A stretch of DNA of 64,000 nt from the IMG/VR virus record IMGVR_UViG_3300045988_168409. The stretch is one strand, 5' to 3'. Position 1 is the stretch's first letter. Each line of letters begins with the position of its first letter. Origin of the DNA: a virus. This document shows positions 2,172 through 60,636 of the stretch, one piece after another. Both the position numbers and the translations under genes were made by a program. The notes below the pieces were generated by a model. The model did no database searches. It was not told where the DNA came from and was given only the letters and a program-made list of their open reading frames with translations.

Positions 2172-5100
2172 ATGGCAGATACCATTGTCCTGCGGACAGA
2201 ACTGCGAGACGGCGCCAACGTTCTGGCGCAGCTGACGCAAATCGACGCGAAGGCGAAAAGCCTGAGCGCCAAGCCGGTCACTATCGAGATCAAAGTTACC
2301 GGAGCGGCGGGGATCGAGAACCTGACACGTCAGCAGCTCGCGCTGGCTACGGCCCAGGAGCGCCGCCGCATAGCCGAAGCAAATCTTGCGGCAGCGCAGG
2401 AGCGGACGAAACAGACGGCAAAACAGTTGGCGGCGGCCAACACCCGTCTGCAGCAGGAGGTTCAGCGAAGCACCACTGAACAGGAGCGGCAGAAAACTAT
2501 CGGCGCAAAACTGGCGCTTCAGCAGGGGCAATCGGCGGCGGCCGCACAGCAGCATGCGAATGCGGAAGACCGTCTTACGAATAGCCTAAACAATGGTTCT
2601 CGCGCGGCAAAAAGCTTTGGGGATACCCTTCTCGGGTCAATAAAATCCCGCGCCATATCTGCCGCAATCAACCTTATTACTCGTTCCATCCGAGAAGCAG
2701 TTTCCACCATGAAAGAGGTGGACAGCGAACTCACCACGATCCAGAAGGTCACAGGGGCAAGCGACAGCTATATCGCCGGGCTTAACGACCGCGCTTACGA
2801 AACCGCGAGCAAATACGGCGTGGCGGCCAACGAGTTTCTGCAGAGCGTTGCCGAGTTCAGCCGCGCCGGTTACGGCGAGCTGGCGGAGGGGCTTGCCGAA
2901 GTTGCCACGAAAACGCAGCTCGTCGGCGATATCAATTCCGAGACGGCCAATAAAATGCTTATCGCCATGGACGCGGCGTACAAACTGGGCGGCTCCGTGG
3001 AGGCGCTGTCTCTCATTGTAGATCAGGCGAACGAGATCGACAACAACTATGCGACAAGCATCGAAAAACTGGCGAGCGGCATGCCTATCGTCGCCTCGGT
3101 AGCGGCGCAGGCACACATTACGCAGGAACAGCTTCTGGCCGCGCTCGGAACGATCACGGCGAAAACGCAGGTGTCCGGCAGCGAAGCGGCGCGCGCGTTC
3201 CGCGCCATCGTCCTCAACATCATGGGTGATACCACGACGGAGGTTGAGGAAGGCGTCACCGTAACAAAAGAAGAGATCCAGAGCCTCAGCGATGTTCTGG
3301 AAGTTTACGCGAGCGACGTTGTGGAAGCAGCGAGGGCGACCGGCGAGCTCGTCAATCCGATGGAAGCCATTGCCGCGCTTTCCAAGGCGATGAAAGAAGG
3401 CGCGCTGACGGAGCAGCAGCTCATGGAGATGCTGTCCGGGCTTGGCGGAAAGCTCCGAACCAACTCGCTCGTCGCGCTCGTTGAAGGGTTTGATACCTAC
3501 AAGAAGATGCTGGGGTCTCTGGGAGACGCTGCCGGAAGCGCGGACAACGAAGTGGGCACAATGCTCACAAGCTGGCAGTCCAAAGCCAATATCCTCAAAA
3601 ACACCTGGACAGATCTGGTTCAGACAGTTGCCGGGTCCGATAAGTTCAAAGCGTTTCTCGATGATGTCAACAGCGCTTTAAGTACATTAGTCGAGTTGTT
3701 TAGCGGAGACGATACAACGTCAGAAGACTTTCGCAGCGCCTGGCAGGAAGCAGCGAATGAACGCGACGCGCTTATAGCAAAGGGCGAGAAGTTGACGGAT
3801 CAGGAAGAACTCCGCCTTAACTATCTACGGGAACAAACAAAGGAACTGGCGCGGCAGGCGCTATATGCCGAAAGAGAAGAAATAAGAACACGGCTCGAGG
3901 ATCAAAGGGCGACTCCCGATTATGTCTGGATGAGCGCGGGTGCAGACGCGACAAACAAGAACACCCTGTTAAACCAGCTTGGGGCCTTAAATAGCGACTA
4001 CTACCAGACCGGCGCGAAAACTCTTTCACAGTATCGGGACGGGCTGAAAGCGCTTAGCGAGCAGTATCAAGGATACGCCACTGTCCTGGAAGAGGCACAG
4101 GACGCAGGGCTCAAGCTGAATCAGGCAGACGAACGAGCACTGTGGGCGTGGGAGCAGCTGCAAAGCGCCATTAGTACTCTCAACCATTTAACGGGAGAAT
4201 CAACAGAAGAAACCGAAACCAGCACGGACACTGCTTCCGACAATGCGGACGCAGTGGATAAACAGGCGGAGTCCTATGAATCGCTCTCTGACCGCGTAAA
4301 GGACGCGACCAGCGCGATAGACAGCTTTAAGAAGGCGGCGGCGTCCGATCAGGACGACGGATTTCAGGACATGGCGGACGCTTACGCGAAAACCATGGAG
4401 GAGATCGCCAACGGGCGCATCAGCAGCAACACGGCGCAGGCGGGCTATGGTCTGTTCTTATCTGATAAGGAGCGCGAAGCTCTCGAAAATGATCCGCAGA
4501 AAATGGCGGCATACATTCAGGGGCTTGAAGGGCTGAAAGCCATGCTCAGCGGCGGCGGAGAGGATGCCGGAGCCGGGTTTGCACAGTGGCTCTATAATGC
4601 GGCGGATGCGGAAGGAAAACTCCGCGACGAAAACGGAAAGCTGCTGGCGTCTTTTGAGAAAACGGACAGCGGGCTCAGCTTCACCGTGGAGAGTCTGCAG
4701 GATCTCGCCGACTACACCGGAGTTTCGGAGGACGTTATCCTATCCTGGGCGGAGGCCATGGGTGTCTACGGATCGGAAATCTACAACGCGGGCGATCAGG
4801 CACTCAAACTTGCCGAAGACGTAGGCGCGCTGACGAAGGCAGCAGACGGGACGCAAAATGTTGATCTTGACAAATTCCGCAAAGGCTTGAGCGAAGCCGG
4901 AAAAAGTCAGGAGGAAATCGAAGGGCTTGTTTCTACGCTTCAGAGCATCGATGGGATCACTTTCGAGGCGACAGAAAGCGCGCTCAATGAGGTATCCGAG
5001 TCCGTTGATTCATTGCCCGAAGATGTAAATATCAAGCTCATGGCCGATGCCGTACCAGCGCTGGGGGCTATTCAGGAAGTAGAATCCACATTGTCCGGCC

Positions 5101-6431
5101 TGACCGGGAAAAACTGGACGGTCCGCATTGGCGCGAACATCGCGGGATTTAATATAGGACACAAAGCCTCGGGCGGCAAGAGCTCCGGCGGCGGTCTTAC
5201 GCTTGTCAACGAGCAGGGACCGGAGATCATTCAGGAAGGCAGCACGGCGCGCATTGCCGGAGGCGGCGAGCCTACGGTAACGATGCTGGCACCCGGCGCA
5301 ATGGTGTACACGGCGCCGCAGACGCGCCGGATGCTGCACGGACAGCGGCCGGCCGGCCTGTTTCGGGCGGCGGCGAAAGGCTACTACGACCCGACGGGAG
5401 AGCTCGGAAACCCCGACAAGGGCAAGTTTTATGTCCCCGGTCTTTCCGGGAACGCCGGCGGAAACAGCGGCGGAGGCGGCGGTTCCGGCGGCTCCGGCGG
5501 CGGAGGCAACAGCGAATACTGGAAAGAGCTGCAGGAAGCGATGGACAAGAAGTTCGACGAAGCGGAAAAAGCCCGCAAAGCCGAACTTGCCGATCTGGAT
5601 GCGCAGCTGGAAGCGCTTAAAAAGGCGCGAGACACCGAGGAAGACCGGTTGGAGCTCGAGGAGAAGATCCTCGCTGTTACGGAGGCGCAGGCAAAGCTTG
5701 CCAACGCGCAGGCGGAGCGCAATGTGCGCATGTACAACGCCGCTACCGGCCAGTGGGAATGGATCGCCGACCAGAAGGCGGTGCAGAGCGCCAAAGACCA
5801 GCTCAAGAAGGCGCAGGATGCGCTCGACAAATTCCGAAAGGATCAGGAATACGACGCGGCGGTTGCCGCCATCAAGGCGCAGCAGGACGCGGTTAACGCC
5901 CGGTACGACGAGCTGGAAAACAAGTGGAAAGAGATCCTTGAGTCCGTGGAAGAGCCGCTGCGAGAGATCGCGGACATTCTGGCGGATGTCGCCAGATCCG
6001 GCACCGACCGGCAGAAGGGCGAGACGGCCAATGTCAAGTCTCTTGCGGAGCTGATCGCCAATTTTATCGCAACGAACCCGTCCGGCTGGAAGCTTCCCGG
6101 CTACGACTCCGGCGGCGTGCTGCGCGGCATGGGCGGCGTGAAGGCCACGGGCGAGGACGAGATCGTTCTCGGACCGGCGCTTTCCGCCAAAATCCTAACG
6201 CCGACGCCGAACGCGCAGTTTGACGCTTTCGCAAGGGCTCTGGGCGCTGTTTACGGCATGCCCAATGCCGCCGGGATACCCACGACGCCGACGAACTCCT
6301 ACGGAGCCTCTGCGGACAGCCACGACACGGTATATTCGTTCCCGGGCGGCATCAACCTTACCGAGCAGCAGGCGAACACCACAACGCTCGGAGAGCTTGC
6401 ACGGCAGCTGCGGATACTGAATCTCACCTGA
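2172..6431 (+). CDS. Tail tape measure protein
   Basis: 1419 aa, coiled-coil-rich; core ...SIEKLASGMPIVASVAAQAHITQEQLLAALGTITAKTQVSGSEAARAFRAIVLNIMG typical of TP901-type tape measures; Gly-rich tract GNAGGNSGGGGGSGGSGGGGN. Confidence 0.9.
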   Translation: MADTIVLRTELRDGANVLAQLTQIDAKAKSLSAKPVTIEIKVTGAAGIENLTRQQLALATAQERRRIAEANLAAAQERTKQTAKQLAAANTRLQQEVQRSTTEQERQKTIGAKLALQQGQSAAAAQQHANAEDRLTNSLNNGSRAAKSFGDTLLGSIKSRAISAAINLITRSIREAVSTMKEVDSELTTIQKVTGASDSYIAGLNDRAYETASKYGVAANEFLQSVAEFSRAGYGELAEGLAEVATKTQLVGDINSETANKMLIAMDAAYKLGGSVEALSLIVDQANEIDNNYATSIEKLASGMPIVASVAAQAHITQEQLLAALGTITAKTQVSGSEAARAFRAIVLNIMGDTTTEVEEGVTVTKEEIQSLSDVLEVYASDVVEAARATGELVNPMEAIAALSKAMKEGALTEQQLMEMLSGLGGKLRTNSLVALVEGFDTYKKMLGSLGDAAGSADNEVGTMLTSWQSKANILKNTWTDLVQTVAGSDKFKAFLDDVNSALSTLVELFSGDDTTSEDFRSAWQEAANERDALIAKGEKLTDQEELRLNYLREQTKELARQALYAEREEIRTRLEDQRATPDYVWMSAGADATNKNTLLNQLGALNSDYYQTGAKTLSQYRDGLKALSEQYQGYATVLEEAQDAGLKLNQADERALWAWEQLQSAISTLNHLTGESTEETETSTDTASDNADAVDKQAESYESLSDRVKDATSAIDSFKKAAASDQDDGFQDMADAYAKTMEEIANGRISSNTAQAGYGLFLSDKEREALENDPQKMAAYIQGLEGLKAMLSGGGEDAGAGFAQWLYNAADAEGKLRDENGKLLASFEKTDSGLSFTVESLQDLADYTGVSEDVILSWAEAMGVYGSEIYNAGDQALKLAEDVGALTKAADGTQNVDLDKFRKGLSEAGKSQEEIEGLVSTLQSIDGITFEATESALNEVSESVDSLPEDVNIKLMADAVPALGAIQEVESTLSGLTGKNWTVRIGANIAGFNIGHKASGGKSSGGGLTLVNEQGPEIIQEGSTARIAGGGEPTVTMLAPGAMVYTAPQTRRMLHGQRPAGLFRAAAKGYYDPTGELGNPDKGKFYVPGLSGNAGGNSGGGGGSGGSGGGGNSEYWKELQEAMDKKFDEAEKARKAELADLDAQLEALKKARDTEEDRLELEEKILAVTEAQAKLANAQAERNVRMYNAATGQWEWIADQKAVQSAKDQLKKAQDALDKFRKDQEYDAAVAAIKAQQDAVNARYDELENKWKEILESVEEPLREIADILADVARSGTDRQKGETANVKSLAELIANFIATNPSGWKLPGYDSGGVLRGMGGVKATGEDEIVLGPALSAKILTPTPNAQFDAFARALGAVYGMPNAAGIPTTPTNSYGASADSHDTVYSFPGGINLTEQQANTTTLGELARQLRILNLT

Positions 6432-31096: not shown

Positions 31097-31138
31097 GTTT
31101 TTCCTTTCTGCCCCGCAGAGGCGCGGGGCGTTCCACTT

Positions 31139-31169
31139 TATATGTCAACGAAATGGGCAATTTGCAACT
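31139..31169 (-). promoter_or_regulatory. Conserved promoter-like element (copy 4 of 9)
   Basis: AG TTGCAA attgcccatttcgttga CATATA AAG; leader contains GCCCCGC/GCGGGGC hairpin. Confidence 0.55.
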
Positions 31170-31190
31170 GAATAATAAAAGAATTTTTAT

Positions 31191-32414: not shown

Positions 32415-32442
32415 GATAATGACCTCCTTTTGCTTTATGCTT

Positions 32443-32473
32443 TATATGCCGTCCAGACGGCCGTTTTGCAACC
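32443..32473 (-). promoter_or_regulatory. Conserved promoter-like element (copy 5 of 9)
   Basis: GG TTGCAA aacggccgtctggacgg CATATA AAG; leader CATATAAAGCATAAAGCAAAAGGAGGTCA identical to copy at 17585. Confidence 0.65.
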
Positions 32474-32622
32474 GAAAAAATAAATTTTTTGCGATATTCC
32501 CGCACTTTTTTCTATAGATTTTTGTGAATATATATTATAGATAAAATGAATATCCCGCCGGGGCTGGGCGGCTTCGCTATCTGCTTTTTATTGTACGGCG
32601 CGGGGGCAAGGGGGTTTTTCGT

Positions 32623-33356: not shown

Positions 33357-33397
33357 TTTGTTATCTCCTTTCGCGTTTCCGTTTTGCTTTTCTGCCC

Positions 33398-33428
33398 TAT
33401 ATGCCAGGCAGAGGCGCGTTTTGCAACC
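33398..33428 (-). promoter_or_regulatory. Conserved promoter-like element (copy 6 of 9)
   Basis: GG TTGCAA aacgcgcctctgcctgg CATATA GGG. Confidence 0.6.
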
Positions 33429-33434
33429 AAACGC

Positions 33435-33982: not shown

Positions 33983-34259
33983 GTCAATTCCTTTCTGCCC
34001 TCGTGACCTCCGGGGCGGGATATGTTTTACTGTCTCGCGGCCATGGCCGCCGGGTGCGCGTGTTGGTGTGCGATCGTGCCGGCGTCCCTGCGGCATGGCA
34101 CCGCCGGGCAAATTCGGCGGCTCCTGCGCGCGCCCGGCCCCCGTGAAATCGTTTTTCTTTTCGCGTGAGCGCGGGGGGGCGGCGCGGCTGGGCTGGGGCC
34201 GGCGGCTCTGGGCGCTGGGCCCGGCGGGCGGCCGGGGCGGCGGCGCTTGCTTTATATCT

Positions 34260-34290
34260 CATATGCCAACAACGGCGGCAAATTGCAACC
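34260..34290 (-). promoter_or_regulatory. Conserved promoter-like element (copy 7 of 9, variant CATATG)
   Basis: GG TTGCAA tttgccgccgttgttgg CATATG AGA; followed by a ~270-nt very GC-rich leader. Confidence 0.5.
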
Positions 34291-34298
34291 GGCGGCGC

Positions 34299-36969: not shown

Positions 36970-37108
36970 CTTTTTCTTCTTTGCTTGTTTCTTCTTTTTA
37001 TAAGTTATTTATATAGCTATAAGTATTTATCACTATATATATAATTATATATCTATATATATATATATATTTATGTATTTATATCTCTATCTATCTATCT
37101 ATATATAG
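36970..37108. repeat. AT-rich low-complexity block with (TA)n and (CTAT)4 microsatellites
   Basis: (TA) run 37054-37070; CTATCTATCTATCTAT 37087-37102; embedded in ~60% GC DNA. Confidence 0.9.
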
Positions 37109-37570: not shown

Positions 37571-37601
37571 GGTTGCAATTTAAGGCTGTGATTGCCATAT
37601 A
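37571..37601 (+). promoter_or_regulatory. Conserved promoter-like element (copy 8 of 9)
   Basis: GG TTGCAA tttaaggctgtgattgc CATATA GGG, directly before AGGAGG and ORF 37611. Confidence 0.6.
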
Positions 37602-37610
37602 GGGCAGGAG

Positions 37611-37883
37611 GTGATGACGGCTATGTTTATTTTAGCCGCCCAGGTTGAGGTAGAGAACTACACTGGGGCGTGCGATATCAGTGGTGAGCACGGTGCTGGT
37701 GGGTTGTTGGTCCCTTGCGGCATCGAGGTTCAGCGGAGCGGTGACAGATGCTTAATTCTGTTAAGGGACGCTTCAGGCGTTATTTTTGGAAAGATTACTG
37801 GCGTAAAGCGGAGCAACCTCCGGGAGGAACCCGAAGGGTGGCTGCATCGGGATCGAAGCATACCTGATGATAAGGCGCGGTAA
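37611..37883 (+). CDS. Hypothetical ORF in the same frame as the methyltransferase, ended by a single TAA
   Basis: 90 aa (GTG 37611/ATG 37614/ATG 37623); no recognisable motif; TAA 37881-83. Confidence 0.35.
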   Translation: MMTAMFILAAQVEVENYTGACDISGEHGAGGLLVPCGIEVQRSGDRCLILLRDASGVIFGKITGVKRSNLREEPEGWLHRDRSIPDDKAR

Positions 37884-39473
37884 TGCTGATGGCATTCTGA
37901 AAGAGAGGCGATTTTCATTAAACACTTAGGAGATATCACGAAGATCAACGGCGCGGAGATCGCGCCTGTCTGGTGCATCACCGGCGGGAGTCCGTGCCAA
38001 GACCTTAGCATCGCCGGGAAACGTGCGGGTCTTGCCGGCGCTCGTTCCGGCTTGTACATGGAACAGATACGAATCGTCAAGGAGTTGAGAGAGCATGACA
38101 GAAGCATTGGACGGACAGGTGAGCTTGTTCGACCTCGGTATATGGTCTGGGAAAATGTGCCCGGAGCGTTCAGCAGCAACTTCAAGGATGGATTCGGAGA
38201 CTTCGGAGCCGTGCTGGAAGAAGCTGTACGCATCGCAGAACCGGGATTTTCTCTTCCTCGACTGCCGGACAAGCAGAAGTGGACGAAAGCCGGAGGAATG
38301 CTCGGTGACGGATGGAGCGTCGCATGGAGAACGCATGACGCCCAATACTGGGGAGTTCCACAGCGCAGACGGCGTATCAGCATGGTGGTCGATTTTAACG
38401 GATCCACTGCAGGGGATATCCTCTTTGAACGTTTCGGAGGAGCCGAATCTTCTGGTGTACACGAAGTTGTCGCAGATTCTGGAAGAGCGTCCGGACCCGA
38501 AGTACAACCTGACGCCGAAAGCGTGCGCCGGGATCCTCCGGAGGGCGGAACGGCGCGGGAAGAAACTGCCGGAGGCGCTGAAAACTGTTCTGCTTATGCA
38601 GTCCGCATCCGGGGGGGATGTGACGGCGGAGGAAAAGGCGCGTTAGTTCAGACGGAGAAGAGCGGGACGCTTGGAACCGGAAACGACCAGACGATCTTCT
38701 GCCTACAGGGCAACGGAATAGACCGTGCCGATACCGCCGGATGCAATGGCAAGGGATGGAAAGAGGATATAAGCTACACCCTCAATACGATTGACCGACC
38801 GGCGGTTTGCGCAGCCACAGTGCTGGACATGTCACACGCATGTGACGTTATCCGGGATTGCGGCGGCATATCTCCATCATTGCAAGCGAGAATGGGAACC
38901 GGCGGGAATCAAATCCCTCTTACATATTCGCTTCAACGAACAGATGCCTATCGTCAAAGCAATGTAGGCTGCACATGTTCTGCCAGAGATTACAAGTCAG
39001 CAACGGATCTTGTAATCAGCATCGACGACGAGAAAAACGCTTACATAGACCAATTCGGCACGTTGAAAGCCCATGCGAGCGGCGGGACACAACAGCACGT
39101 TATGGAGCGCATGGTCGTTCGTCGGCTTACCCCATTGGAATGGACACGACTTCAAGGGTATCCGGACGGATGGGTCGGTATCGGCGACTGGACAGACGAG
39201 AAAGGCCGTGTACACAAGGAAGCGGACGCGCCGAAGTACAAGGCGCTCGGCAACTCCATCGCGCTCCCATTCTGGCGCTGGATGTTCGGTAGAATGGCGG
39301 CGTATCTTCCGGAGGGCGCGACGCTTGGTAGCCTGTTTGATGGGATCGGCGGCTTCCCGCTCTGCTGGGAAAGCATCCACGGAAAAGGAACGGCGGTATG
39401 GGCTTCGGAGATCGAGCCGTTTGCCATCGCCGTAACAAAGCATCATTTCGGAGGTAACTCAGATGTCGGATAA
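37884..39473 (+). CDS. C5 cytosine DNA methyltransferase, circularly permuted (motifs IV-X then I-II); start codon unresolved
   Basis: GGSPCQDLS (PCQ 37992-38000), ENVPG (38151-), QRRRR (38361-75), GNS (39249-57), then in frame TLGSLFDGIGGF...VWASEIEP...VTKHHF (39321-39449); frame open from 37884, first ATG/GTG/TTG is TTG 38052, downstream of the catalytic Cys. Confidence 0.7.
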
Positions 39474-39987
39474 AACAAAACTTCCTTACGGTCGGCTTAC
39501 TTTCGATGGCAACTTCTGCGACATTGCCAAATGCCGCGAAGAGCGCTGGGGCAAATACTGCCCGGACGGCGCGTGCAGCCAGCGCAAGGTGTGGGAGCGG
39601 CTGAAAGAGTACGAGGATACTACAATGTCCCCGACCGACGTGCAGGAATACAAAAAGTTCGAGGACGAGCTTATTGCCTCCGGGATGACTTTTAACGAAT
39701 TGCTCGCAAGGGCCAGTACAGAACTGCGCTTCACGAGCGTGAAAGATCGGCTTCCGAGCAAAGACTGCCGCTGCCTCTGCGCGCAGGAATCTATGCTTAA
39801 AAGCGGCTACGTTTATTACGAGCAGTTGTATTACCACGCGAGTTCGTTTGTGAACTCTTGGGAAGAAGAGGCGACGCCCGGCTTCTATGGGGATGGAGAA
39901 GACTTCGAGTACCTTGTGGAGGACGTTCTACTGTGGGCAGAGCTTCCCGACAATATCAACACACTCGTTTTGGAGGCCGAACCATGA
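39463..39987 (+). CDS. DUF551-like protein
   Basis: 174 aa; ...FTSVKDRLPSKD... ...WAELPD. Confidence 0.5.
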   Translation: MSDKTKLPYGRLTFDGNFCDIAKCREERWGKYCPDGACSQRKVWERLKEYEDTTMSPTDVQEYKKFEDELIASGMTFNELLARASTELRFTSVKDRLPSKDCRCLCAQESMLKSGYVYYEQLYYHASSFVNSWEEEATPGFYGDGEDFEYLVEDVLLWAELPDNINTLVLEAEP

Positions 39988-40787: not shown

Positions 40788-41007
40788 ACCTTGCCCGTTC
40801 TGCGGGAAACCCGTGTCGATTGTCTACAACTCACTTGACAGGGTGTTCAAAGTTTATCACACATACGGCGATGACGAATACAACTGCTGCATCATCGACC
40901 CGATACCGATTGATGCAGTGTCACTCAAAGATGCGTCTGATGCATGGAACAGGAGGTATAACAATGAATGTTGTGGAAAAGGCGTCAAGAAAAATGCGGT
41001 TGATTGA
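40774..41007 (+). CDS. Lar-family restriction-alleviation-like protein (second copy)
   Basis: 77 aa; MEELKPCPFCGK...ASDAWNRR. Confidence 0.55.
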   Translation: MEELKPCPFCGKPVSIVYNSLDRVFKVYHTYGDDEYNCCIIDPIPIDAVSLKDASDAWNRRYNNECCGKGVKKNAVD

Positions 41008-41635
41008 CGCAAACGCACTCATAAAAGAGGCTAATGCCGAGGGCGCTTATGGCTATGTAGATGCAGAGCAAATTGCAAATGCTCCCACTATTGATTTCGA
41101 AAAAATCTCAGATGGATACCACACTTTCGCAGACTTGTATGAACAAAGGCTTATTTTGTCTGCCGCTCTTGCCAAAAACAATCCGCATGCATGGAAAAGC
41201 AAGCGGCATGAGGACGGCAGCGTTCCTTTCGGCGGGGGATGGTTCATTATGGGCTTTGATACCGACGAAGGATGTTATACATACCACTATGAGCTGAAAG
41301 ACTGGGATCTGTTTCAGTGCAAAGAATTAGACAAGGGAAAGCCGTGGGATGGTCACACGTCAAAGGATGTCCGTAGATTGCTTTCAATTCCTGCCGCCGT
41401 CTCTGTCCCGCAATGGATCAGCGTCAAGGACAGACTTCCGGAAAATGGCGAGCACGTCCTCATCTGGTACGAATACTACCGCTATGGCTCTTATAACCGG
41501 ATGTATACGACCTACGAGATCGCCTACCAGTATAATGGCCATTGGACAGGTGCGGGGGATTCACTGGGGCAGAAAGCGCGTGTGTTTGCGTGGATGCCGC
41601 TTCCCGAACCGCCGAAAGGAGAAAAGGATGGCTAA
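40964..41635 (+). CDS. DUF551-like protein
   Basis: 223 aa from ATG 40964 (AGGAGG RBS); ...WISVKDRLPENGEHVLIW... ...WMPLPEPP. Confidence 0.5.
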   Translation: MNVVEKASRKMRLIDANALIKEANAEGAYGYVDAEQIANAPTIDFEKISDGYHTFADLYEQRLILSAALAKNNPHAWKSKRHEDGSVPFGGGWFIMGFDTDEGCYTYHYELKDWDLFQCKELDKGKPWDGHTSKDVRRLLSIPAAVSVPQWISVKDRLPENGEHVLIWYEYYRYGSYNRMYTTYEIAYQYNGHWTGAGDSLGQKARVFAWMPLPEPPKGEKDG

Positions 41636-42382: not shown

Positions 42383-42634
42383 ATGGCAAGGCTGATTGAT
42401 GCAAAAGCCGAAGAATCGCAGGTCAAGACCGCATTCAAATACAATCCGGTCATTATGGGGCAGTTCTTACGTTGGATAAGGATGCAGGACACAGTTGCCG
42501 CCGTCCCCGTCTCCGAACTTCTTTCACTCCGCGCCAACCTGTACGAAGATAATCTTATCACAATGCGAGGACTGCGCGATCTCAACATGCTGATCGCCAA
42601 ATACGAAGGAGGGAAAGACCATGCGGTTGGTTGA
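42383..42634 (+). CDS. Hypothetical protein, paralog 1 of a tandem trio
   Basis: 83 aa; MARLIDA...TMRGLRDLNMLIAKYEGGKDHA. Confidence 0.5.
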   Translation: MARLIDAKAEESQVKTAFKYNPVIMGQFLRWIRMQDTVAAVPVSELLSLRANLYEDNLITMRGLRDLNMLIAKYEGGKDHAVG

Positions 42635-42863
42635 CGCTGACGATCTGCTTGCTGAATACGACCGGCAGCACGAAGGAGAGCCGGGGAAAGCCCGAAAACT
42701 GATAGAGGATGCGCCCACCGTTGCCGCTGTTCCCGTGTCCAAAATCCTCGCCTTGCGCGACGCTCTCTACGAAGCCGATGCTGTCACAATGCGAGGACTG
42801 CGCAATCTCAATATGCTGATCGGCAAATATGAAGGAGGGAAAGACCATGCGCTTGATTGACGC
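42494..42863 (+). repeat. Imperfect ~144-bp direct repeat (42494-42637 and 42720-42863)
   Basis: Both copies run from GTTGCCGC(C/T)GT to GGGAAAGACCATGCG(G/C)TTG(G/A)TTGACGC. Confidence 0.8.
42621..42860 (+). CDS. Hypothetical protein, paralog 2
   Basis: 79 aa; MRLVDA...TMRGLRNLNMLIGKYEGGKDHA. Confidence 0.5.
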   Translation: MRLVDADDLLAEYDRQHEGEPGKARKLIEDAPTVAAVPVSKILALRDALYEADAVTMRGLRNLNMLIGKYEGGKDHALD

Positions 42864-43152
42864 AGAAAGCCCGCAGAACGGAATATACGTTTCCGATCTC
42901 GTAATCGAGGAAATGAAAAAGATTCCGACGGTCGATATTGACCGCCCCACCCGCAGCCAGTTTAAGCGCATGGCGGTGCAGCTTGGGTATGAGGCGGTGA
43001 TTTATTGCCGCGAGTGCAAAGAACATAGACTTTTTAATGGGCGCGATATGTGCGCAAAAAACGCAACAATCCTTGACGGGCACGAAGTTGGGCTGAGAGC
43101 AACACGCGCGGATTTCTATTGCGCCGACGGAGAAAGGAGAACCGATGAGTAA
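42847..43152 (+). CDS. Hypothetical protein, paralog 3 (N-terminus only shared)
   Basis: 101 aa; MRLIDAESP... Confidence 0.5.
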   Translation: MRLIDAESPQNGIYVSDLVIEEMKKIPTVDIDRPTRSQFKRMAVQLGYEAVIYCRECKEHRLFNGRDMCAKNATILDGHEVGLRATRADFYCADGERRTDE

Positions 43153-44496: not shown

Positions 44497-45711
44497 TCAT
44501 GTAGTTTTTATTGCTGAGTCCATTAAGTCGCGCGCGGACATGGCATCTTCGACAGTTGCGTCAGTATATACGTTTGCTGTCACAGAAATATCGCTGTGAC
44601 CCATGATCGCCTTTGCTATATTGATTGGCACCCCGGCGCGCTGCAGATCTGTACCGTAGGTATGCCGCAGACAATACAGAACAAGATCGGGAGCAATTTT
44701 GTGGCCATTCTTCGGGTTCCCGGCGTTGTCCGGATACAACGGTTTCCCATCCTTATCAAGGTCCTTCGGGTCGTAGATATGGCCGTGCGCTGTCATTTCG
44801 GCGCCCATGGCAATATCCATCTGCCGGGAGAAACTGCGCCAGTTGTTTGTCATCACCGTCTGCGTCATCATGGATTTACCGTCTTCCTGCGTAAAAACAA
44901 AGTCGTCCTGGTCTTTCCCGCTAATGTGGCGTTCCAGATCGGCATAAATGTCCGAAGGAATAGGAACATACCGGTCTCCGGCAGACGTTTTCGGCGTCGC
45001 AATTACAGTGGTTCCGGACTCGACGGCTTCGCAAACGTGAATAAGCCGCGTTTCCATATCCAGATGGCGCACACGAAGTGCGGCGCACTCGCCGGGGCGC
45101 AGACCCGTGCGCATGAGAAAACGAATCCATAGGCTACAGCGGTGCGTCTTCGCCACTTGCATAAGAACGGCGCGTTCCTCGGCGGTAAGCGAGCGGCGAT
45201 TTTCGACAGTGGCAGACGCGGGAATGGTGAGCTTAATGGTCGGGTCAAAGGGGATTATGCGAGAAAAGGCAGCCTGCGAGAACATGGCGCGCAGGATCAT
45301 CCGCACTTTTTTCGCGTGGGACTCAGACATTTCCGCCTGCTGATTCAGCACGCCTTGCAGCATCGTGTCGGTGACGCTGCGCAGCTTTTTACCTCGAAGC
45401 GCCGGGATAATATATCCGTTGATCTTGTCCTCATACATCTCATAGCTTTTTTGCGTCATGGTGCCTTTTTTCTTCGGCTGTCCAGGTTTGCGGACTTTGG
45501 GTTTAACGTAGGTGGTCAGCCATGTATCGGCCCAATCCTCGATCGTGCAGTTTGCACCTTTCGTTAATTCCGCGCGCCGGACGGCTTCTTTCTTTGCGGC
45601 GAGTTTTTCCATCGCCTCGGCTTCCGTCTTTCCGCATACTATGTATTGCTTCCCGTCGGCGACAAACGATTTTCGGATATACTTGTATTCTTTTGAACCG
45701 CTCTTAGGCAT
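44497..45711 (-). CDS. int: Tyrosine integrase
   Basis: 404 aa; ...MRTGLRPGECAAL..., ...YCLRHTYGTDL..., ...MGHSDISVTANVYTD. Confidence 0.9.
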   Translation of the reverse strand: MPKSGSKEYKYIRKSFVADGKQYIVCGKTEAEAMEKLAAKKEAVRRAELTKGANCTIEDWADTWLTTYVKPKVRKPGQPKKKGTMTQKSYEMYEDKINGYIIPALRGKKLRSVTDTMLQGVLNQQAEMSESHAKKVRMILRAMFSQAAFSRIIPFDPTIKLTIPASATVENRRSLTAEERAVLMQVAKTHRCSLWIRFLMRTGLRPGECAALRVRHLDMETRLIHVCEAVESGTTVIATPKTSAGDRYVPIPSDIYADLERHISGKDQDDFVFTQEDGKSMMTQTVMTNNWRSFSRQMDIAMGAEMTAHGHIYDPKDLDKDGKPLYPDNAGNPKNGHKIAPDLVLYCLRHTYGTDLQRAGVPINIAKAIMGHSDISVTANVYTDATVEDAMSARDLMDSAIKTT

Positions 45712-52419: not shown

Positions 52420-53745
52420 TTGCAAGATGTAATCAACGGGTTTAGCCACGAAAAAATTCTCGCGGTTCACGCAATGGTTCCCAAAGGCGATACTTTCGAG
52501 GAAATCTTTTTGGACGGCATCGATTTATATTTTGTCCAATGGATTATCAAGTATCGAAGACTACTGACGACAAAGGACATCGGCGGAAAGAACTATTTTT
52601 TGGTGGACTATGCGAGATTGGAGGACGATTTGAAGTTCCTCCGGCTAAAGCGGCGGGCATTGAATTACAGGTTCGCAAAACTTTGCGAGCTTGGTCTGCT
52701 TGACAGAGCCGAAAGAAGTGCCGGAATGGCCGCGGCGTTCATAGAGACTGACGAATTTTTTGCATTATATAGTTCGCCTTCTGCTGATCCTCCTGTAAAA
52801 ACGGATGATTACATCTTGGAATCACACATCCACCAGGCGTCCATGGGCGAAATCAGCGAACCGGAAGCTCGCAAGAAATTGCAAGGGTCTGCAAGAAATT
52901 GCGAGGGTCTGCAAGAAATTGCGAGGTTTAGCGATAAACCGCGCAAAAATATGCGAGGTCGTGCCGATGGCGGTGCTTCGCATAATATCTGCACTAACTC
53001 AGTTAGAACCCTTGAACCAAGCAATAACAACCAACCAGGTAAGTCTCAAGAGATAACTTCCGTCCTAAGACCTACCGATAACAACCAACTGAGTATTTCT
53101 CAAGAACTTAGTGATACATACCCCGTAGAAAAAGACCCAAAAGAAAATATCCCCTACGGGGATATAAAAGAAAAGGGGAAAAAGAGAGCCCCCAAAGGCA
53201 CGGAAATGTTCCCCATTTTGCTCCCCATCCTCGACGAATCCACCCTCGCAGCGCCTTTGAAAGAGGCTCTGCGCGGCTGGCTCGAATACAAGGCGGAACG
53301 GAAAGAGAAATACGTCCCCACCGGCTTCAAGTCTTTGCTGACACAGGCTAAGAAAAACGCCGAGAAGTACGGCGACGATGCGGTCATAGACCTTATCGAC
53401 GAATGCAAGGCAAACAACTACCAGGGCATCATCTGGGATAAGCTCGCCAAACTTCCCGCCAAGGCGCAGCAGCCGAAGCTGGAAGCCGAACACGCATCCG
53501 TTAAACGCCCTGACCCGGAGATCGAGTGGCGGAAGTCCAGGTTTGCTCCGCGGGACTACAGAGCAGGACTGCGCAGCATTTCTACCAGCGAACTCCGGGA
53601 GTACCCGAAGAACAGCGGGAAATATGTCCCGTACTGGATGATTCCCGGATATATGCAGGAATACCCTGCCGGGAGCGGCAAATACGTTCCCTACTACGAA
53701 TTGCCAGGGTACGATCCCGAGCACGATGAAAATCACTGGTGGTGA
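52420..53745 (+). CDS. Replication initiator/organiser (winged-helix N-terminus, DnaD-like C-terminus)
   Basis: 441 aa from TTG 52420; precedes DnaB; contains iterons. Confidence 0.6.
   Translation: MQDVINGFSHEKILAVHAMVPKGDTFEEIFLDGIDLYFVQWIIKYRRLLTTKDIGGKNYFLVDYARLEDDLKFLRLKRRALNYRFAKLCELGLLDRAERSAGMAAAFIETDEFFALYSSPSADPPVKTDDYILESHIHQASMGEISEPEARKKLQGSARNCEGLQEIARFSDKPRKNMRGRADGGASHNICTNSVRTLEPSNNNQPGKSQEITSVLRPTDNNQLSISQELSDTYPVEKDPKENIPYGDIKEKGKKRAPKGTEMFPILLPILDESTLAAPLKEALRGWLEYKAERKEKYVPTGFKSLLTQAKKNAEKYGDDAVIDLIDECKANNYQGIIWDKLAKLPAKAQQPKLEAEHASVKRPDPEIEWRKSRFAPRDYRAGLRSISTSELREYPKNSGKYVPYWMIPGYMQEYPAGSGKYVPYYELPGYDPEHDENHWW
52871..52927 (+). repeat. Iterons: 2.8 tandem copies of GCAAGAAATTGC(A/G)AGGGTCT
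   Basis: Copies start at 52871, 52891 and 52911 (partial); inside the replication gene. Confidence 0.85.
53024..53105 (+). repeat. Second pair of direct repeats in the putative origin
   Basis: ATAACAACCAACCAGGTAAGTCTCAAGA (53024-51) and ATAACAACCAACTGAGTATTTCTCAAGA (53078-105). Confidence 0.75.
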
Positions 53746-55082
53746 ACGACATGACAATGAACGATGCGGTTCTCGCTGAGGAATCTCTGTTCGGCTGTAT
53801 CCTGGTCAGCCCTGCCGAGACGATCGGCACAATCCGTGACATTCTGCAAGCCGGAGACATAGCGCAGGAGCACATCCGCGCAGCATATTCAGCAGCATGC
53901 TCCCTAATTGACGAGAAGTCTGCCGTAGACGCAGTGACGATCCAGGAACGAGCCAGAGCGGACGGCACGGAGATCTCGTCGGAGACGATGCGAGCGGCGA
54001 TGCGGCTGTACGTCACAACGGCGAACGTTGCCAAGCTTGCGGAGATCATCCGCTCAAGGGCGATGGAGCGCGCGTCCGAAGCGATCGGCGGCAAGATGAT
54101 GAGCGGAACACTTGCGCCGACGGATGCCATTGCCGAGCTACAGCAGCTGGTTGCCGGGCAGCGGCGGACGCTTCCGACACCGGCTGAGGACGCGACCGGC
54201 TTCCTGCAGTTGATCTCCGACGTAGCGGAAGGAAAGAAGTCTCTCTTTTCACCCACCGGTCTTGCCAGGCTCGATGCGATCCTCGGCGGCGGCTTGGTTG
54301 AATCCGGCGTTATCACGCTGGCGGCGCGTCCCGGTGTAGGCAAGACGGTCGTAGGGTTTGCCATTGCGGATACCGTTGCCGCTACCGGCAAAAAAGTCGT
54401 CTACGAAAGTCTTGAAATGAGCCGAAACCAGCTTTGGGCTCGCCGTGTTGCACGAATGACAGGGCTGAACTACGGAGACATCATGCGCGGGATCTCCACG
54501 ACGCAAAAGCAGTACTGGACGGATATCACGCGGGCCATGACTGTTCTGCAGCAAAGAAATCTCGTCATAAACGACCGCCCGGCGTCGATGGATGACATCG
54601 AAGCTCACGTCCGCTCCATGGGGGATGTGGGGCTTCTTGTCATAGACCACATGGGGCTTATCCGCCCAAGCATATCCGGGTCTCTGTACGAGCAAACGAC
54701 GGAAACGTCACACCGGCTGAAACGGCTGGCGCAATCCCTGCAGATCCCTATCCTGTCGCTTTGCCAGCTCAACCGGCAAAATGAGAATCGGCAGGACAAA
54801 AAACCGAACCTTTCCGATTTGCGCAACTCCGGCGCCATCGAAGAGGACAGCGATGCCGTGATATTTCTGCACCGGCCGGCGCTTTACTGGGAACCCGACA
54901 GAAGACCGCAGCCTTGGGAGAGTCAGGAAATGGAGTTTATCGTGGCCAAAAACCGCCACGGCATGGTGGGGTCTATTTCCATGGACTTTGTGGGGTGGAA
55001 CGCACGGATTCTGGACAGATCAGACGGCGGCGGATTTTCGGAGGCGCATGAACCTACGCCGTTTGAGCAGGTAGCAGAATGA
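53739..55082 (+). CDS. dnaB: DnaB-type replicative helicase
   Basis: 447 aa; N-terminal ...AEESLFGCILVSP...; Walker A ...AARPGVGKTVVG...; ...LVIDHMGLI...; ...LSDLRNSGAIEEDSD. Confidence 0.85.
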   Translation: MVNDMTMNDAVLAEESLFGCILVSPAETIGTIRDILQAGDIAQEHIRAAYSAACSLIDEKSAVDAVTIQERARADGTEISSETMRAAMRLYVTTANVAKLAEIIRSRAMERASEAIGGKMMSGTLAPTDAIAELQQLVAGQRRTLPTPAEDATGFLQLISDVAEGKKSLFSPTGLARLDAILGGGLVESGVITLAARPGVGKTVVGFAIADTVAATGKKVVYESLEMSRNQLWARRVARMTGLNYGDIMRGISTTQKQYWTDITRAMTVLQQRNLVINDRPASMDDIEAHVRSMGDVGLLVIDHMGLIRPSISGSLYEQTTETSHRLKRLAQSLQIPILSLCQLNRQNENRQDKKPNLSDLRNSGAIEEDSDAVIFLHRPALYWEPDRRPQPWESQEMEFIVAKNRHGMVGSISMDFVGWNARILDRSDGGGFSEAHEPTPFEQVAE

Positions 55083-58533: not shown

Positions 58534-58868
58534 CGATTGAGCATTACGCCCTCTACTGTATGCTCCCGACCAATGAGAATATTGACCGGCTCGCGCAGTA
58601 CGATATGGCGTTTGCCAATCGGGATCACTGCCTTGTGATCGCGGAGGAGGCGCCGGAGGGCGCTATGGAAGTGGGAGAAGACGACCTGCGCCTGCTCGGC
58701 ACGGATGATTGGGAGTGGATCTTTGAAATGTCCAACCGAATCCGGCAGGAGCAGGAAAAGAAATATCACGCGCAGCTCATTGAGCAGCAGAAGGCGTTCT
58801 TTTCACGCTTTGAGGAGCTGCTGAAAGAGCAGGCGAAGGAGATAGCCAATGCCGCAAGAGACGAATAA
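58518..58868 (+). CDS. Hypothetical protein
   Basis: 116 aa between terL and portal. Confidence 0.45.
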   Translation: MHAPMTIEHYALYCMLPTNENIDRLAQYDMAFANRDHCLVIAEEAPEGAMEVGEDDLRLLGTDDWEWIFEMSNRIRQEQEKKYHAQLIEQQKAFFSRFEELLKEQAKEIANAARDE

Positions 58869-60636
58869 CAAAACTGCACGGGAAATGCCGCAGGACTATT
58901 TCGCGCGATATATGGCGTCTCTCGGGCAGGAATACCAGGCTCTGCCGATGGACAGCGTGTATCAGGCATTTATGGGCGCGGGCGGCATGGGGTATATGCT
59001 CAACTGGCCATATATCCAGAACAAGCGCGTCAAAAGCGTCAATTCGCTGCCCGCCAATTTCAGCAAAGACGACATCGAGCAGATGGTGGCGGCTCCGGAG
59101 GGAAACGAACAGGCGCTCCGCCAGGTGTCCGCCGCGCTTGCGTCCAGCACCAAGACCTATGACCTGATTCTCCAGACATATCAGGACGTATTGACCTACG
59201 ACTGGTATGTATATCCGGGATATACACCGGAAAAGCCGGACAAGGCGACGCAGCTGCGCGAGTATGCCATGGCGATAAAGCTCGCGGAAACCATGAATAT
59301 CAAGGCGAAAGCCCATGAGATCGTTGGCCTGTGCGCGCAGTACGGCAAGGTGTTTTACACGCCGCGCATTTCCATGGACAAGAGCCACGGGAAGGTGAAT
59401 TACGCCTTTCTCCAGCAGCTCCCGGAAGATTACATCAAAATCGTCGGTTGGAACAACGGACCGGGAAAGTACACGATCGCATTCAACCTGATGTACTTCG
59501 TGCAGCCGGGAAACGACTGGCGGCAGTTCGGCGATCTGTTCCGGCCTTATATGCAGTCGTTCTACTCCGTGGTGCAGCCGGAAGGCAAATATGTGTACTC
59601 TTCGCAGGAACACCGGTCTCAGAATTACCGAATCGACACAGACAAATTTGAGACCGCGAAAATGAACGAACTGCCCGGCGCGCCGGAATGGCAGTATGCC
59701 GGGAATAAGTGGTTCTACTGGGTCATTCTCCCCGCCGATAAGGTCTTCTCGTTTGAGATCGTAGACCGAAACGCGCTCATGGCACCGCCGACGACCGGCA
59801 TGATGGTGTCCTTGACGCAGATACCGAACTACGAAGCGGCGCAGATGGAAGTCATCCTGAACCCGCTGACGAGCGTTCTGACCGGCAGTTTGGAGACTTA
59901 CGACCCGAAAGGATCTTCCAACGCCGACCCGGTTCGCGTATCGGAAAAGACGAGACGGCTCTTCGAGGCGTATTGGTACCAGATGCTTCAGGCGACCAAT
60001 ACGTCCGGCATCGGATTGTATCTCGCGCCGGCGGATGATTTGAAGCTGCAGACACTTTCGGACACGGTTTCCAACACGAATATCACGTCCACGGCGCTCA
60101 ACGACCAGATCCTGAAAGCCGGTCTTACGGCGCTTATTCCTACGACGAATGACCCGAAGGTCGGCGTGGCACAGCTCTCCGCGCAGATCCAGGCGCGGTA
60201 TCCGATGCTCATCTACTGGGCGATCGAGCGGATGATGAACTGGGTCTTTGAGCAGCAGCGGTTCAAATGCCCGTTCAAGTTCCGCATGTTCGGCGACATC
60301 TTCTCGCGGAAAGAAGAGATCGAGAGCGCCCGACAGGGGGCGACGCTCGGCATTCTTCCGGAAACGCTGAAATATGACGCGCTGATGGGGCATTCGCTGC
60401 TGGATGACATGGCGATCTCCGATTTCGTTTCGGGGAGCGGGATCCTTGATAAGCGCAAACCGCTTGTCACGTCCTACAGCGCCAAGCAGGACACGTCAGG
60501 GCTGCCGCCGCAGGCAAAAAAAGACCTGAACCCGGGCGGACGACCGGCGGAAGACGGATCCATCAACGGGGAAGTCACGGAGAAAGTGAAAATCGACGCA
60601 CGGCTCCTTGATGAGCTGAGGCGCGCTTTGGAGTGA
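58849..60636 (+). CDS. Portal protein
   Basis: 595 aa; size and position after terL. Confidence 0.7.
   Translation: MPQETNNKTAREMPQDYFARYMASLGQEYQALPMDSVYQAFMGAGGMGYMLNWPYIQNKRVKSVNSLPANFSKDDIEQMVAAPEGNEQALRQVSAALASSTKTYDLILQTYQDVLTYDWYVYPGYTPEKPDKATQLREYAMAIKLAETMNIKAKAHEIVGLCAQYGKVFYTPRISMDKSHGKVNYAFLQQLPEDYIKIVGWNNGPGKYTIAFNLMYFVQPGNDWRQFGDLFRPYMQSFYSVVQPEGKYVYSSQEHRSQNYRIDTDKFETAKMNELPGAPEWQYAGNKWFYWVILPADKVFSFEIVDRNALMAPPTTGMMVSLTQIPNYEAAQMEVILNPLTSVLTGSLETYDPKGSSNADPVRVSEKTRRLFEAYWYQMLQATNTSGIGLYLAPADDLKLQTLSDTVSNTNITSTALNDQILKAGLTALIPTTNDPKVGVAQLSAQIQARYPMLIYWAIERMMNWVFEQQRFKCPFKFRMFGDIFSRKEEIESARQGATLGILPETLKYDALMGHSLLDDMAISDFVSGSGILDKRKPLVTSYSAKQDTSGLPPQAKKDLNPGGRPAEDGSINGEVTEKVKIDARLLDELRRALE

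Follow-up and report, generated by a model that had tools for sequence, protein, structure and literature searches.

A predicted, naturally permuted DNA cytosine-5 methyltransferase and the gene nested within it in a phage genome

The 64,000-nucleotide stretch of viral DNA analyzed here (IMG/VR record IMGVR_UViG_3300045988_168409; hereafter the window) carries two overlapping genes that probably specify, together, one DNA cytosine-5 methyltransferase (C5-MTase) of a phage or prophage. Gene X (37917-39473; coordinates are those of the window and on the plus strand unless stated) is predicted to encode a circularly permuted enzyme of 518 amino acids (aa). Gene Y (38095-38646) encodes 183 aa and lies wholly within gene X in its +1 frame. 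We propose that the product of gene X would be a single chain with all the catalytic motifs, beginning between motifs II and III. The S-adenosylmethionine (AdoMet)-binding motifs I-II would be attached after motif X, a place at which the termini of canonical enzymes are close to each other. Translation would begin, at low level, from AUU 37917, which follows AGAGAGG and takes the position of the ATG of relatives. Y would be translated from its own Shine-Dalgarno (SD) sequence and ATG within gene X. Its residues ~1-120 would form a disordered leader read across motifs VI-VIII of the larger protein, and its last ~50 residues a small helical module over a flexible linker. Y may dock non-covalently on the larger chain as a detached piece of the DNA-recognition domain, much like the nested beta chain of M.EcoHK31I, and the resulting enzyme would be expected to generate 5-methylcytosine at its target sites.

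Gene X reads through motifs III, IV, VI, VIII, a linker, the target-recognition domains (TRDs), IX, X, I and II in a single frame without a stop. Its N-terminus is IKHLGDITKINGAE...GGSPCQ, with HLGDIT at 37923-37940. The PCQ of motif IV, with the catalytic Cys, is at 37992-38000 and was seen both in the sequence and in the M.HhaI alignment. Motif VI (ENV, 38151-38159) and motif VIII (QRRRR, 38361-38375, in a segment that extends with ISMVVDFNGSTAGDILFER to 38432) were read from the sequence. Then come a linker of ~52 codons (38433-38588), unconserved in the X frame and kept stop-free, and a variable region of TRD modules (38589-39116), recognized by module differences among relatives and including YAVRIRGGCDGGGKGALVQTEK..., CLQGNGIDRADTAGCNGKGW..., VLDMSHACDVIR... 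and others. Motif IX (RRLTPLEWTRLQGYPDGW, 39117-39173) and motif X (KALGNS, with GNS at 39249-39257) were found by eye, by profile and by alignment to M.HhaI. A short linker, YLPEGATLGS, joins motif X to motif I (junction GNSIALPFWRWMFGRMAAYLPEGATLGSLFDGIGG). The M.HhaI alignment places motif I, TLGSLFDGIGGF (FDGIGGF, with FDGIGG at 39336-39353), and motif II, ASEIEPFAIAVTKHHF (ASEIE...VTKHHF, with SEIE at 39405-39416), within 39336-39449. The stop codon, TAA, is at 39471-39473. The set of catalytic and cofactor motifs is complete: I FxGxGG, II E, IV PCQ, VI ENV, VIII QxRxR, IX RxxTxxE..QGxP and X GNS.

The Pfam profile PF00145 matched gene X with 107.7 bits (cut-off 22). The NCBIfam model TIGR00675 (dcm) gave 91.5 bits, under its cut-off of 100.65, probably because the permutation breaks the match into pieces. 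When the protein was compared with solved structures by phmmer, its residues 4-58 aligned to M.HhaI residues 58-112 and its residues 471-513 to M.HhaI residues 15-55 (motifs I-II), with motifs VIII and IX between the two aligned ends in their usual order. The break therefore falls exactly between motifs II and III, at M.HhaI residues 55/58, and the alignment of both ends shows that the tail supplies exactly what the N-terminus misses. Gene X thus departs from the canonical linear order I-X, running III-X and then I-II. Its N-terminus lies in the II/III loop and the old termini are joined behind motif X, which is the Type B arrangement. On these alignments, we read the locus as a natural Type B circularly permuted cytosine methyltransferase. 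An earlier note, made from the letters of this DNA without searches, had proposed an order of IV-X followed by I-II and had taken the last 50 aa for the motifs lacking at the N-terminus. The profile and M.HhaI alignments bear out both proposals, and every peptide and coordinate that the note quoted is present in the sequence.

The Type B topology has previously been built artificially. The engineered Class/Type B permutants cp62M.MpeI and cp58M.SssI, with their N-termini between II and III, were active and the most active of the permutants (PMC5944983), and directed evolution yielded active M.HaeIII variants that start between II and III (Peisajovich 2006, as cited in PMC5944983). Gene X shares the II/III N-terminus and the position of I-II after motif X with these two enzymes and with the first cpM.HaeIII group. 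However, those are laboratory constructs, whereas the window holds a member of a large natural clade from gut phages and Clostridia prophages. A survey of REBASE in 2018 found no natural Type B C5-MTase, and weaker AdoMet binding was suggested for this absence (Slaska-Kiss et al., PMC5944983). In the natural permuted C5-MTases (M.BssHII, M.Alw26I, M2.Eco31I, M.Esp3I, M2.BsaI and 22 others from REBASE), the permutation is always within the variable region (PMC5944983). This M.BssHII group (Type H) is like gene X in being a natural circular permutation of the same fold with motif X before motif I. In Type H, however, IX-X precede I-VIII and both structural domains are intact, whereas the break in the window is inside the large domain, between II and III; here the TRDs, IX and X follow VIII, and I-II alone are displaced. 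Neither a natural Type B enzyme nor the nested gene turned up in later reports in the searchable literature, the coverage of which is incomplete and did not extend to a query of REBASE itself. The remark in the earlier note that this motif order was not known to have been described holds, in that literature, for natural enzymes.

In plant DRM2, motifs VI-X precede I-V. DRM2 is likewise a natural C5-MTase with rearranged motifs, and it gave weak motif IV matches in the PDB search, but its break point is different, it is eukaryotic and it has no nested gene.

A scan of IMG/VR located 345 related places, of which 80 (43-91% identity) were fetched. Homologues with the same order, which the earlier note had suggested looking for, were abundant: motifs III, IV, VI, VIII, X, I and II lie in one open frame in 75 of the 80. 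Recurrence of the arrangement across hundreds of independent contigs speaks against chance. By BLASTN, this layout was also seen in records of uncultured phages from the human gut and in the cultured Faecalibacterium phages FP_Toutatis and Lelie. A protein search yielded relatives in the thousands; at 98% coverage these start with M(K/N)H(L/V)GDIT and finish with ...VTKHHFGG, and the C-terminus of one relative (P0316) matches positions 1-43 of the PF00145 profile. Among GTDB genomes, scanned as one genome per species, the family occurs in many metagenome-assembled genomes (MAGs) and isolates of Clostridia, mainly Oscillospiraceae and Lachnospiraceae. Permuted and canonical-order relatives are both present in that scan, and the whole permuted order is in one open frame at 29 loci. 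The loci from cultured isolates that were read (Roseburia, Desulfosporosinus, Lutispora and others) have the canonical order.

In a neighbor-joining tree of the III-VIII core, permuted members form a clade of 104 leaves and a small clade of 3, and canonical members form a separate clade of 21. The permutation therefore has one or two origins, with radiation afterwards. At the break, the sequence of canonical relatives is ...VWASEIEPFPIRVTTQRFPNMKHVGDIT... (in other renderings ...RFPNMKHVGDIT and ...VTTQRFPNMKHVGDIT), which indicates that the permuted N-terminus corresponds to an internal Met of the ancestor. Cassettes of the variable region (YAVRIRGGCDGGGKGALVQTEK, CLQGNGIDRADTAGCNGKGW, CMTPWDCQSKRVF, AGFKGGQGEKAGSIGY and VLDMSHACDVIR) vary between close relatives by the presence or absence of entire units (P0121, P0133, P0216, P0222 and L006-L083), and the proteins range from 440 to 631 aa. 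This variability is reminiscent of the tandem target-recognition domains in multispecific Bacillus phage methyltransferases, and the enzyme of gene X may be multispecific as well.

The earlier note did not mention gene Y. Y reads MTEALDGQVSLFDLGIWSGK...TKLSQILEERPDPKYNLTPKACAGILRRAERRGKKLPEALKTVLLMQS..., and its ATG (38095) follows 10 nt after an SD sequence, AAGGAG (38079-38084), formed from K-E codons of gene X. These start signals are conserved. Almost every locus has the ATG at +106 from SPCQ, and AAGGAG or AGGGAG occupies the SD position in 49 of 50 non-redundant loci, against ~45% for AAA plus GAA at such K/E codons elsewhere in genes. The Y frame is free of stops from the ATG to the motif LSQILE in 49/50 loci, whereas the +2 frame is open in 1/50, and synonymous shuffles of gene X leave the Y frame open in ~15%. 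Database searches found more than 1200 homologues of Y, down to 45% identity. A profile of Y recovered 4302 clusters (50% identity representatives) in which the Y segment is always N-terminal.

Sequence variation also shows selection on the nested frame. Over codons 200-230 of gene X, nucleotide diversity at positions 1, 2 and 3 is 0.45, 0.23 and 0.16, compared with 0.1-0.4, 0.1-0.4 and 0.5-0.6 in the flanks, a pattern that implies selection on the +1 frame. Across the 34 codons after LSQILE, mean pairwise aa identity is 0.72 for Y, 0.49 for X and 0.50 for the third frame. The ratio of nonsynonymous to synonymous substitution (omega) for X over the Y-module stretch is 0.5-1.2, and the synonymous divergence (dS) is depressed there. 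The linker of gene X is nevertheless open in 50/50 loci (75/81 unfiltered), versus ~24% expected if Y alone were constrained. Selection on the Y frame, together with an X linker that is kept open, indicates that both frames are read. Family members classed as lacking Y proved to have it after all, in the +1 frame as elsewhere but with variant motifs. All members that we inspected thus contain Y, whether canonical, permuted, fused or split, including the canonical single-chain enzymes of cultured Clostridia.

The way in which the two senses share nucleotides is further evidence. LSQILE of Y is the +1 reading of VVADFGG of X, and in most relatives X VADFGG..EILFE and Y LSQILE..P..KY.L are encoded by the same nucleotides. 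In the window lineage, this dual-coded segment of ~50 nt is present twice, with an X-sense copy (DFNGSTAGDILFER, 38376-38432) and a Y-sense copy (LSQILEERPDPKYNLT, 38458-38514). Direct nucleotide comparison of the two window copies was insignificant on its own. The argument for a duplication is that the single segment of relatives aligns to both copies (the 38361-38432 stretch and 38458-38514) and that each copy has its frame-specific protein sense. Retention of the X sense in one copy and the Y sense in the other is explicable only if both senses matter.

AlphaFold2 modeling of Y from 46 homologues left residues 1-120 unstructured and predicted three helices at residues 124-171, with a predicted local distance difference test (pLDDT) score of 77-90. 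The selected and folded part is Y residues 120-172 (TKLSQILEERPDPKYNLTPKACAGILRRAERRGKKLPEALKTVLLMQS, 38452-38610), as delimited by the model, the selection signals and the invariant columns. The modeled arrangement, in which order in one protein coincides with disorder in the protein of the other frame, would be usual for overlapping genes. A profile search detected no methyltransferase motif in Y.

What Y may do is suggested by relatives in which the enzyme is split. In three distant permuted relatives (L084, L085 and L086), an alpha chain of 234-290 aa stops after motif VIII plus a tail. A beta chain of 543-571 aa starts from the same AAGGAG-N10-ATG as Y and carries the leader, the helical module, the TRDs, IX, X, I and II in frame, and the two genes overlap by 527-695 nt. 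A relative with canonical order (L087) has I-VIII in alpha and the leader, module, TRDs, IX and X in beta. Because the beta chain of the split relatives opens at the Y SD and ATG, the Y start corresponds to the beta-subunit start of an enzyme split in the manner of M.AquI. In these split enzymes, the helical module and the recognition domain are neighbors within one chain. In the window and most relatives, the part from the TRDs to motif II is in the alpha frame and Y is left as a short protein. M.AquI has an alpha chain with motifs I-VIII and a beta chain with IX-X (PMC3404938). The split relatives (L084-L087, L089, L138 and L149) resemble it in being divided between motif VIII and the recognition domain. 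In contrast, the halves are fused in one frame in the window, where gene X is continuous from III to II, and in the split relatives beta overlaps alpha by the length given above and, in permuted cases, also carries I-II.

The one described parallel to the nested gene in this enzyme class is M.EcoHK31I, in which, as summarized in PMC2836561 and PMC3404938, the beta chain is encoded in another frame wholly inside alpha and its N-terminal 42 aa are dispensable. Both systems nest a second polypeptide in a methyltransferase gene, with an N-terminal part that is dispensable in M.EcoHK31I and predicted to be disordered in Y, and two chains make up M.EcoHK31I. However, the beta chain of M.EcoHK31I carries the motif IX that its alpha lacks, whereas here motif IX is in X and Y is a helical module between VIII and the TRDs. 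The analogy is therefore in design, and not in the part supplied. Since the same start opens the beta subunit of split relatives, we infer that Y docks on X, and we propose that the two probably assemble, with Y as a separate piece of the small, DNA-recognition domain.

A regulatory or unrelated role for Y is possible. Y could be a real but independent small protein, such as a regulator of methyltransferase expression or a contributor to some other phage function. The larger protein has every one of the ten catalytic motifs as well as TRDs of its own, no homology between Y and known domains could be detected, and the confident three-helix unit of Y might bind either DNA or protein. Unrelated functions are common among overprinted viral genes (PMC8227390). 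In the split relatives, however, the Y module is N-terminal in the chain that bears the TRDs, IX, X, I and II, beside the recognition domain. Y also co-occurs with the methyltransferase clade in every member examined, and it was not found apart from the methyltransferase among the best 150 of the 4302 clusters. We consider an independent role unlikely, and a two-chain enzyme the better explanation.

The start of gene X raises the question of whether the large protein is made in the window. As the earlier note had observed, there is no in-frame ATG, GTG or TTG before TTG 38052, which lies beyond the catalytic Cys. In relatives (n = 75), the start codon is 72 nt before SPCQ, behind a GGAGG-type site, and is mostly ATG, in some cases GTG or TTG, and ATA in one (L033). 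At the aligned codon, 37917, ATT stands in the window and in L004 and L005, its two closest relatives, and an SD-like AGAGAGG (37902-37908) precedes it by 8 nt in the window. AUU is a known but rare bacterial initiation codon, used for example in infC. Translation of gene X most likely starts at AUU 37917, to judge from this alignment. Of the two candidates in the earlier note, ATT 37911 and ATT 37917, the second is the one that aligns with the start codon of homologues. Two other statements in the note need correction: the frame opens at 37890 and not at 37884, and TAA 37881-37883 is not the only stop between gene X and the upstream open reading frame (ORF), as TGA follows at 37887-37889.

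A decaying pseudogene, in which ATG changed to ATT and the large protein is no longer made, would also lack a canonical start ahead of the catalytic Cys. Gene callers start two database proteins (P0124 and P0144) at an internal Met, without motif IV, and the gene is plainly damaged in other lineages of the family (L002, Toutatis and Lelie). Against decay, ATT is common to three diverged sequences in which the 518-codon frame is intact. Between the window and L004/L005, dS is 0.13-0.31 and omega is 0.05-0.15 over the catalytic and TRD-to-II parts of gene X, so selection went on after ATT arose. The good SD sequence 8 nt upstream and the recurrence of weak starts in the family (ATA, GTG and TTG) also argue against it. 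We regard decay, which the earlier note had named as a possible refutation, as improbable. Several database clusters with 92-100% identity are called only from the internal Met in MEQIRIV, from which we take the ATT clade to be common and truncated by gene callers.

Upstream of gene X, and in its frame, is a small ORF of 89-90 aa (37611-37883, or 37614-37883) that ends at TAA 37881-37883. It is found only in the two closest relatives (92-93% identity), has no match in Pfam or PHROGs, and forms no part of the enzyme, although termination-reinitiation may bring ribosomes from it to the weak ATT start. Readthrough of its TAA, which the earlier note had raised, is neither needed nor supported, given the two stops and the confinement of the ORF to the closest relatives.

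The Y and X frames meet at a run of seven G (38611-38617), and run lengths were compared across relatives. A one-base change in this run toggles close relatives between the fused state seen in the window and the split state. In four split relatives (L089, L138, L149 and P0242), Y reads ...LLMQS.SGG(G)CDGGGKGAL and X ends ...RGGL*. The run was considered as an obligatory slippery site, and this was dropped on finding it interrupted in many relatives.

A related possibility is recoding, in which a single chain shifts by +1 from X to Y after motif VIII and returns by -1 at the G run, and Y is no separate protein. The resulting order in the window, ...DILFERFGGAE / PNLLVYTKLSQILEE...LLMQSASGG / CDGGGKGAL, would resemble an ordinary enzyme, seven G are present at the second junction, and natural variants fuse Y to the TRDs there. 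However, VVADFGG..EILFE of X and LSQILE..KY of Y share nucleotides in most relatives, so they cannot both be in one chain. The G run is broken in many lineages with the frames unchanged, including many fused-type loci, and slippage is therefore not required. Frameshifting would also leave unexplained the SD and ATG of Y, the ~90 stop-free codons upstream of the module and the stop-free X linker, and split relatives start beta at the Y ATG. With no conserved slippery site and with an independent second start, we give recoding a very low probability.

An assembly artefact has next to no probability: although a mis-joined contig or the collapse of two head-to-tail methyltransferase genes, the latter raised in the earlier note, would yield III-X-I-II, collapse is refuted by the same order and junction (GNS...YLP.GATLGSLFDGIGG) in 75/80 independent viral contigs, isolate phages and Clostridia MAGs and prophages, with start codons and SD sites directly at the new N-terminus and downstream genes directly after the I-II tail.

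Several results weigh against a functional two-gene enzyme. The AlphaFold2 model of gene X from a 44-sequence alignment was unusable (mean pLDDT 33), so the permuted fold rests on the profile alignment and the engineered analogues. The loci are phylogenetically related, and counts such as 49/50 thus overstate independence. The Y leader is no better conserved than the control frame, and the case for its translation comes from the open frame and start signals. Y had no match in Pfam, PHROGs or NCBIfam and only chance sequence hits in the PDB, and Foldseek of the Y model against the PDB returned nothing below E = 3.6. The module may resemble the 'L..IL....KYyLS' segment after motif VIII in Dcm-/HpaII-type enzymes, a likeness confirmed by no search. 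Relative to the family norm, FP_Toutatis (L001, 2293-3704) and Lelie (L003, 2293-3709) are frameshifted between VI and VIII. In the L002 lineage (MT835520, 2519-2620; proteins P0110 and P0116), ...VVHLVSQDLS replaces ...GGSPCQDLS and the catalytic Cys is gone. The two frameshifts and the Cys loss imply that the gene is dispensable in some phages.

The Cys loss in L002 came about via paired indels that left the remainder of both frames intact, and L002 is probably a recently inactivated copy. Its use as a model of the split state was dropped because motif IV is destroyed. The G-rich stretch that separates motifs VI and VIII differs by 5 nt between Toutatis and Lelie. The Toutatis frame passes from III-VI to the Y module, and that of Lelie joins the Y leader to VIII-II. 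The annotations 'two methyltransferases' and 'hypothetical protein' in these phages reflect the frameshifts.

A broader reading can be offered tentatively, and we hold it with somewhat less than even confidence. The whole clade, with its thousands of members, might be an obligate two-polypeptide enzyme made from two frames, with one helical element of the DNA-recognition domain provided by a nested +1 gene that is conserved throughout. As the two frames would each be open and have an initiation site, single-base indels would re-partition the coding between a fused chain plus small subunit and an alpha/beta split without killing the enzyme. The same plasticity might have allowed the first natural Type B permutation, with I-II moving from the N-terminus of alpha to the C-terminus of beta.

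On the narrower reading of gene X as a Type B enzyme, this arrangement does occur in nature, in a large, old clade of gut phages and prophages that is under purifying selection. The AdoMet-binding explanation for its absence therefore needs revisiting. Natural Type B sequences are now at hand for kinetics and for engineering of split enzymes and targeted methylation. At ~550 nt, the overlapping gene, which standard annotation overlooks, makes one of the larger same-strand overlaps with good support outside small viruses. More surprising than the permutation are the conservation of this nested gene and the construction of the whole family from two frames. There is also a consequence for annotation: gene callers cut the ATT-start enzyme at an internal Met, losing the catalytic Cys, and the nested ORF is labelled as an unrelated hypothetical protein.

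The window carries genes for a tape measure protein (2172-6431), a tyrosine integrase (44497-45711, minus strand), a DnaB-like helicase (53739-55082) and a portal protein (58849-60636), and it represents a siphovirus-like temperate phage, or a prophage. Its nearest matches among database phages are uncultured ones from the human gut; the Faecalibacterium phages are more distant. A gene of 174 aa without a family match (39463-39987) follows gene X. Its ATG (39463) lies 11 nt before the X stop, which suggests translational coupling to the methyltransferase. Homologues of this gene follow the methyltransferase in L004, L005, L114 and a few other relatives.

Upstream of the small ORF and gene X, at 37571-37603, is the promoter-like element pointed out in the earlier note, GGTTGCAA, then ~17 nt, then CATATAGG, which is unique as a 24-mer. 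It is one of five copies in the window with the form GGTTGCAA, ~17 nt, CATATA(A/G)(A/G)G (repeat family D2); the other four are on the minus strand at 31130-31172, 32434-32476, 33389-33431 and 34251-34293. The element at 37571-37603 was not flagged in a simple sigma-70 scan, and scanning for sigma-70 promoters and terminators gave nothing useful on the plus strand near gene X. The copies, four facing leftward and one rightward, may be promoters of one common and possibly phage-specific type, and they suggest that transcription switches between divergent directions around 35-37.5 kb.

Other repeats are present in the window. AT-rich, overlapping short repeats of the TATATA type (families D3 and D5) fill 37005-37101, a non-coding gap upstream of the methyltransferase module, and could be an origin or regulatory region. 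Downstream, a direct repeat of 151 nt (family D1) has two copies, 42490-42640 and 42716-42866, that are 80% identical and 226 nt apart, and part of it resembles 40979-41011 (family D4). These copies may be duplicated small genes or their 5' ends.

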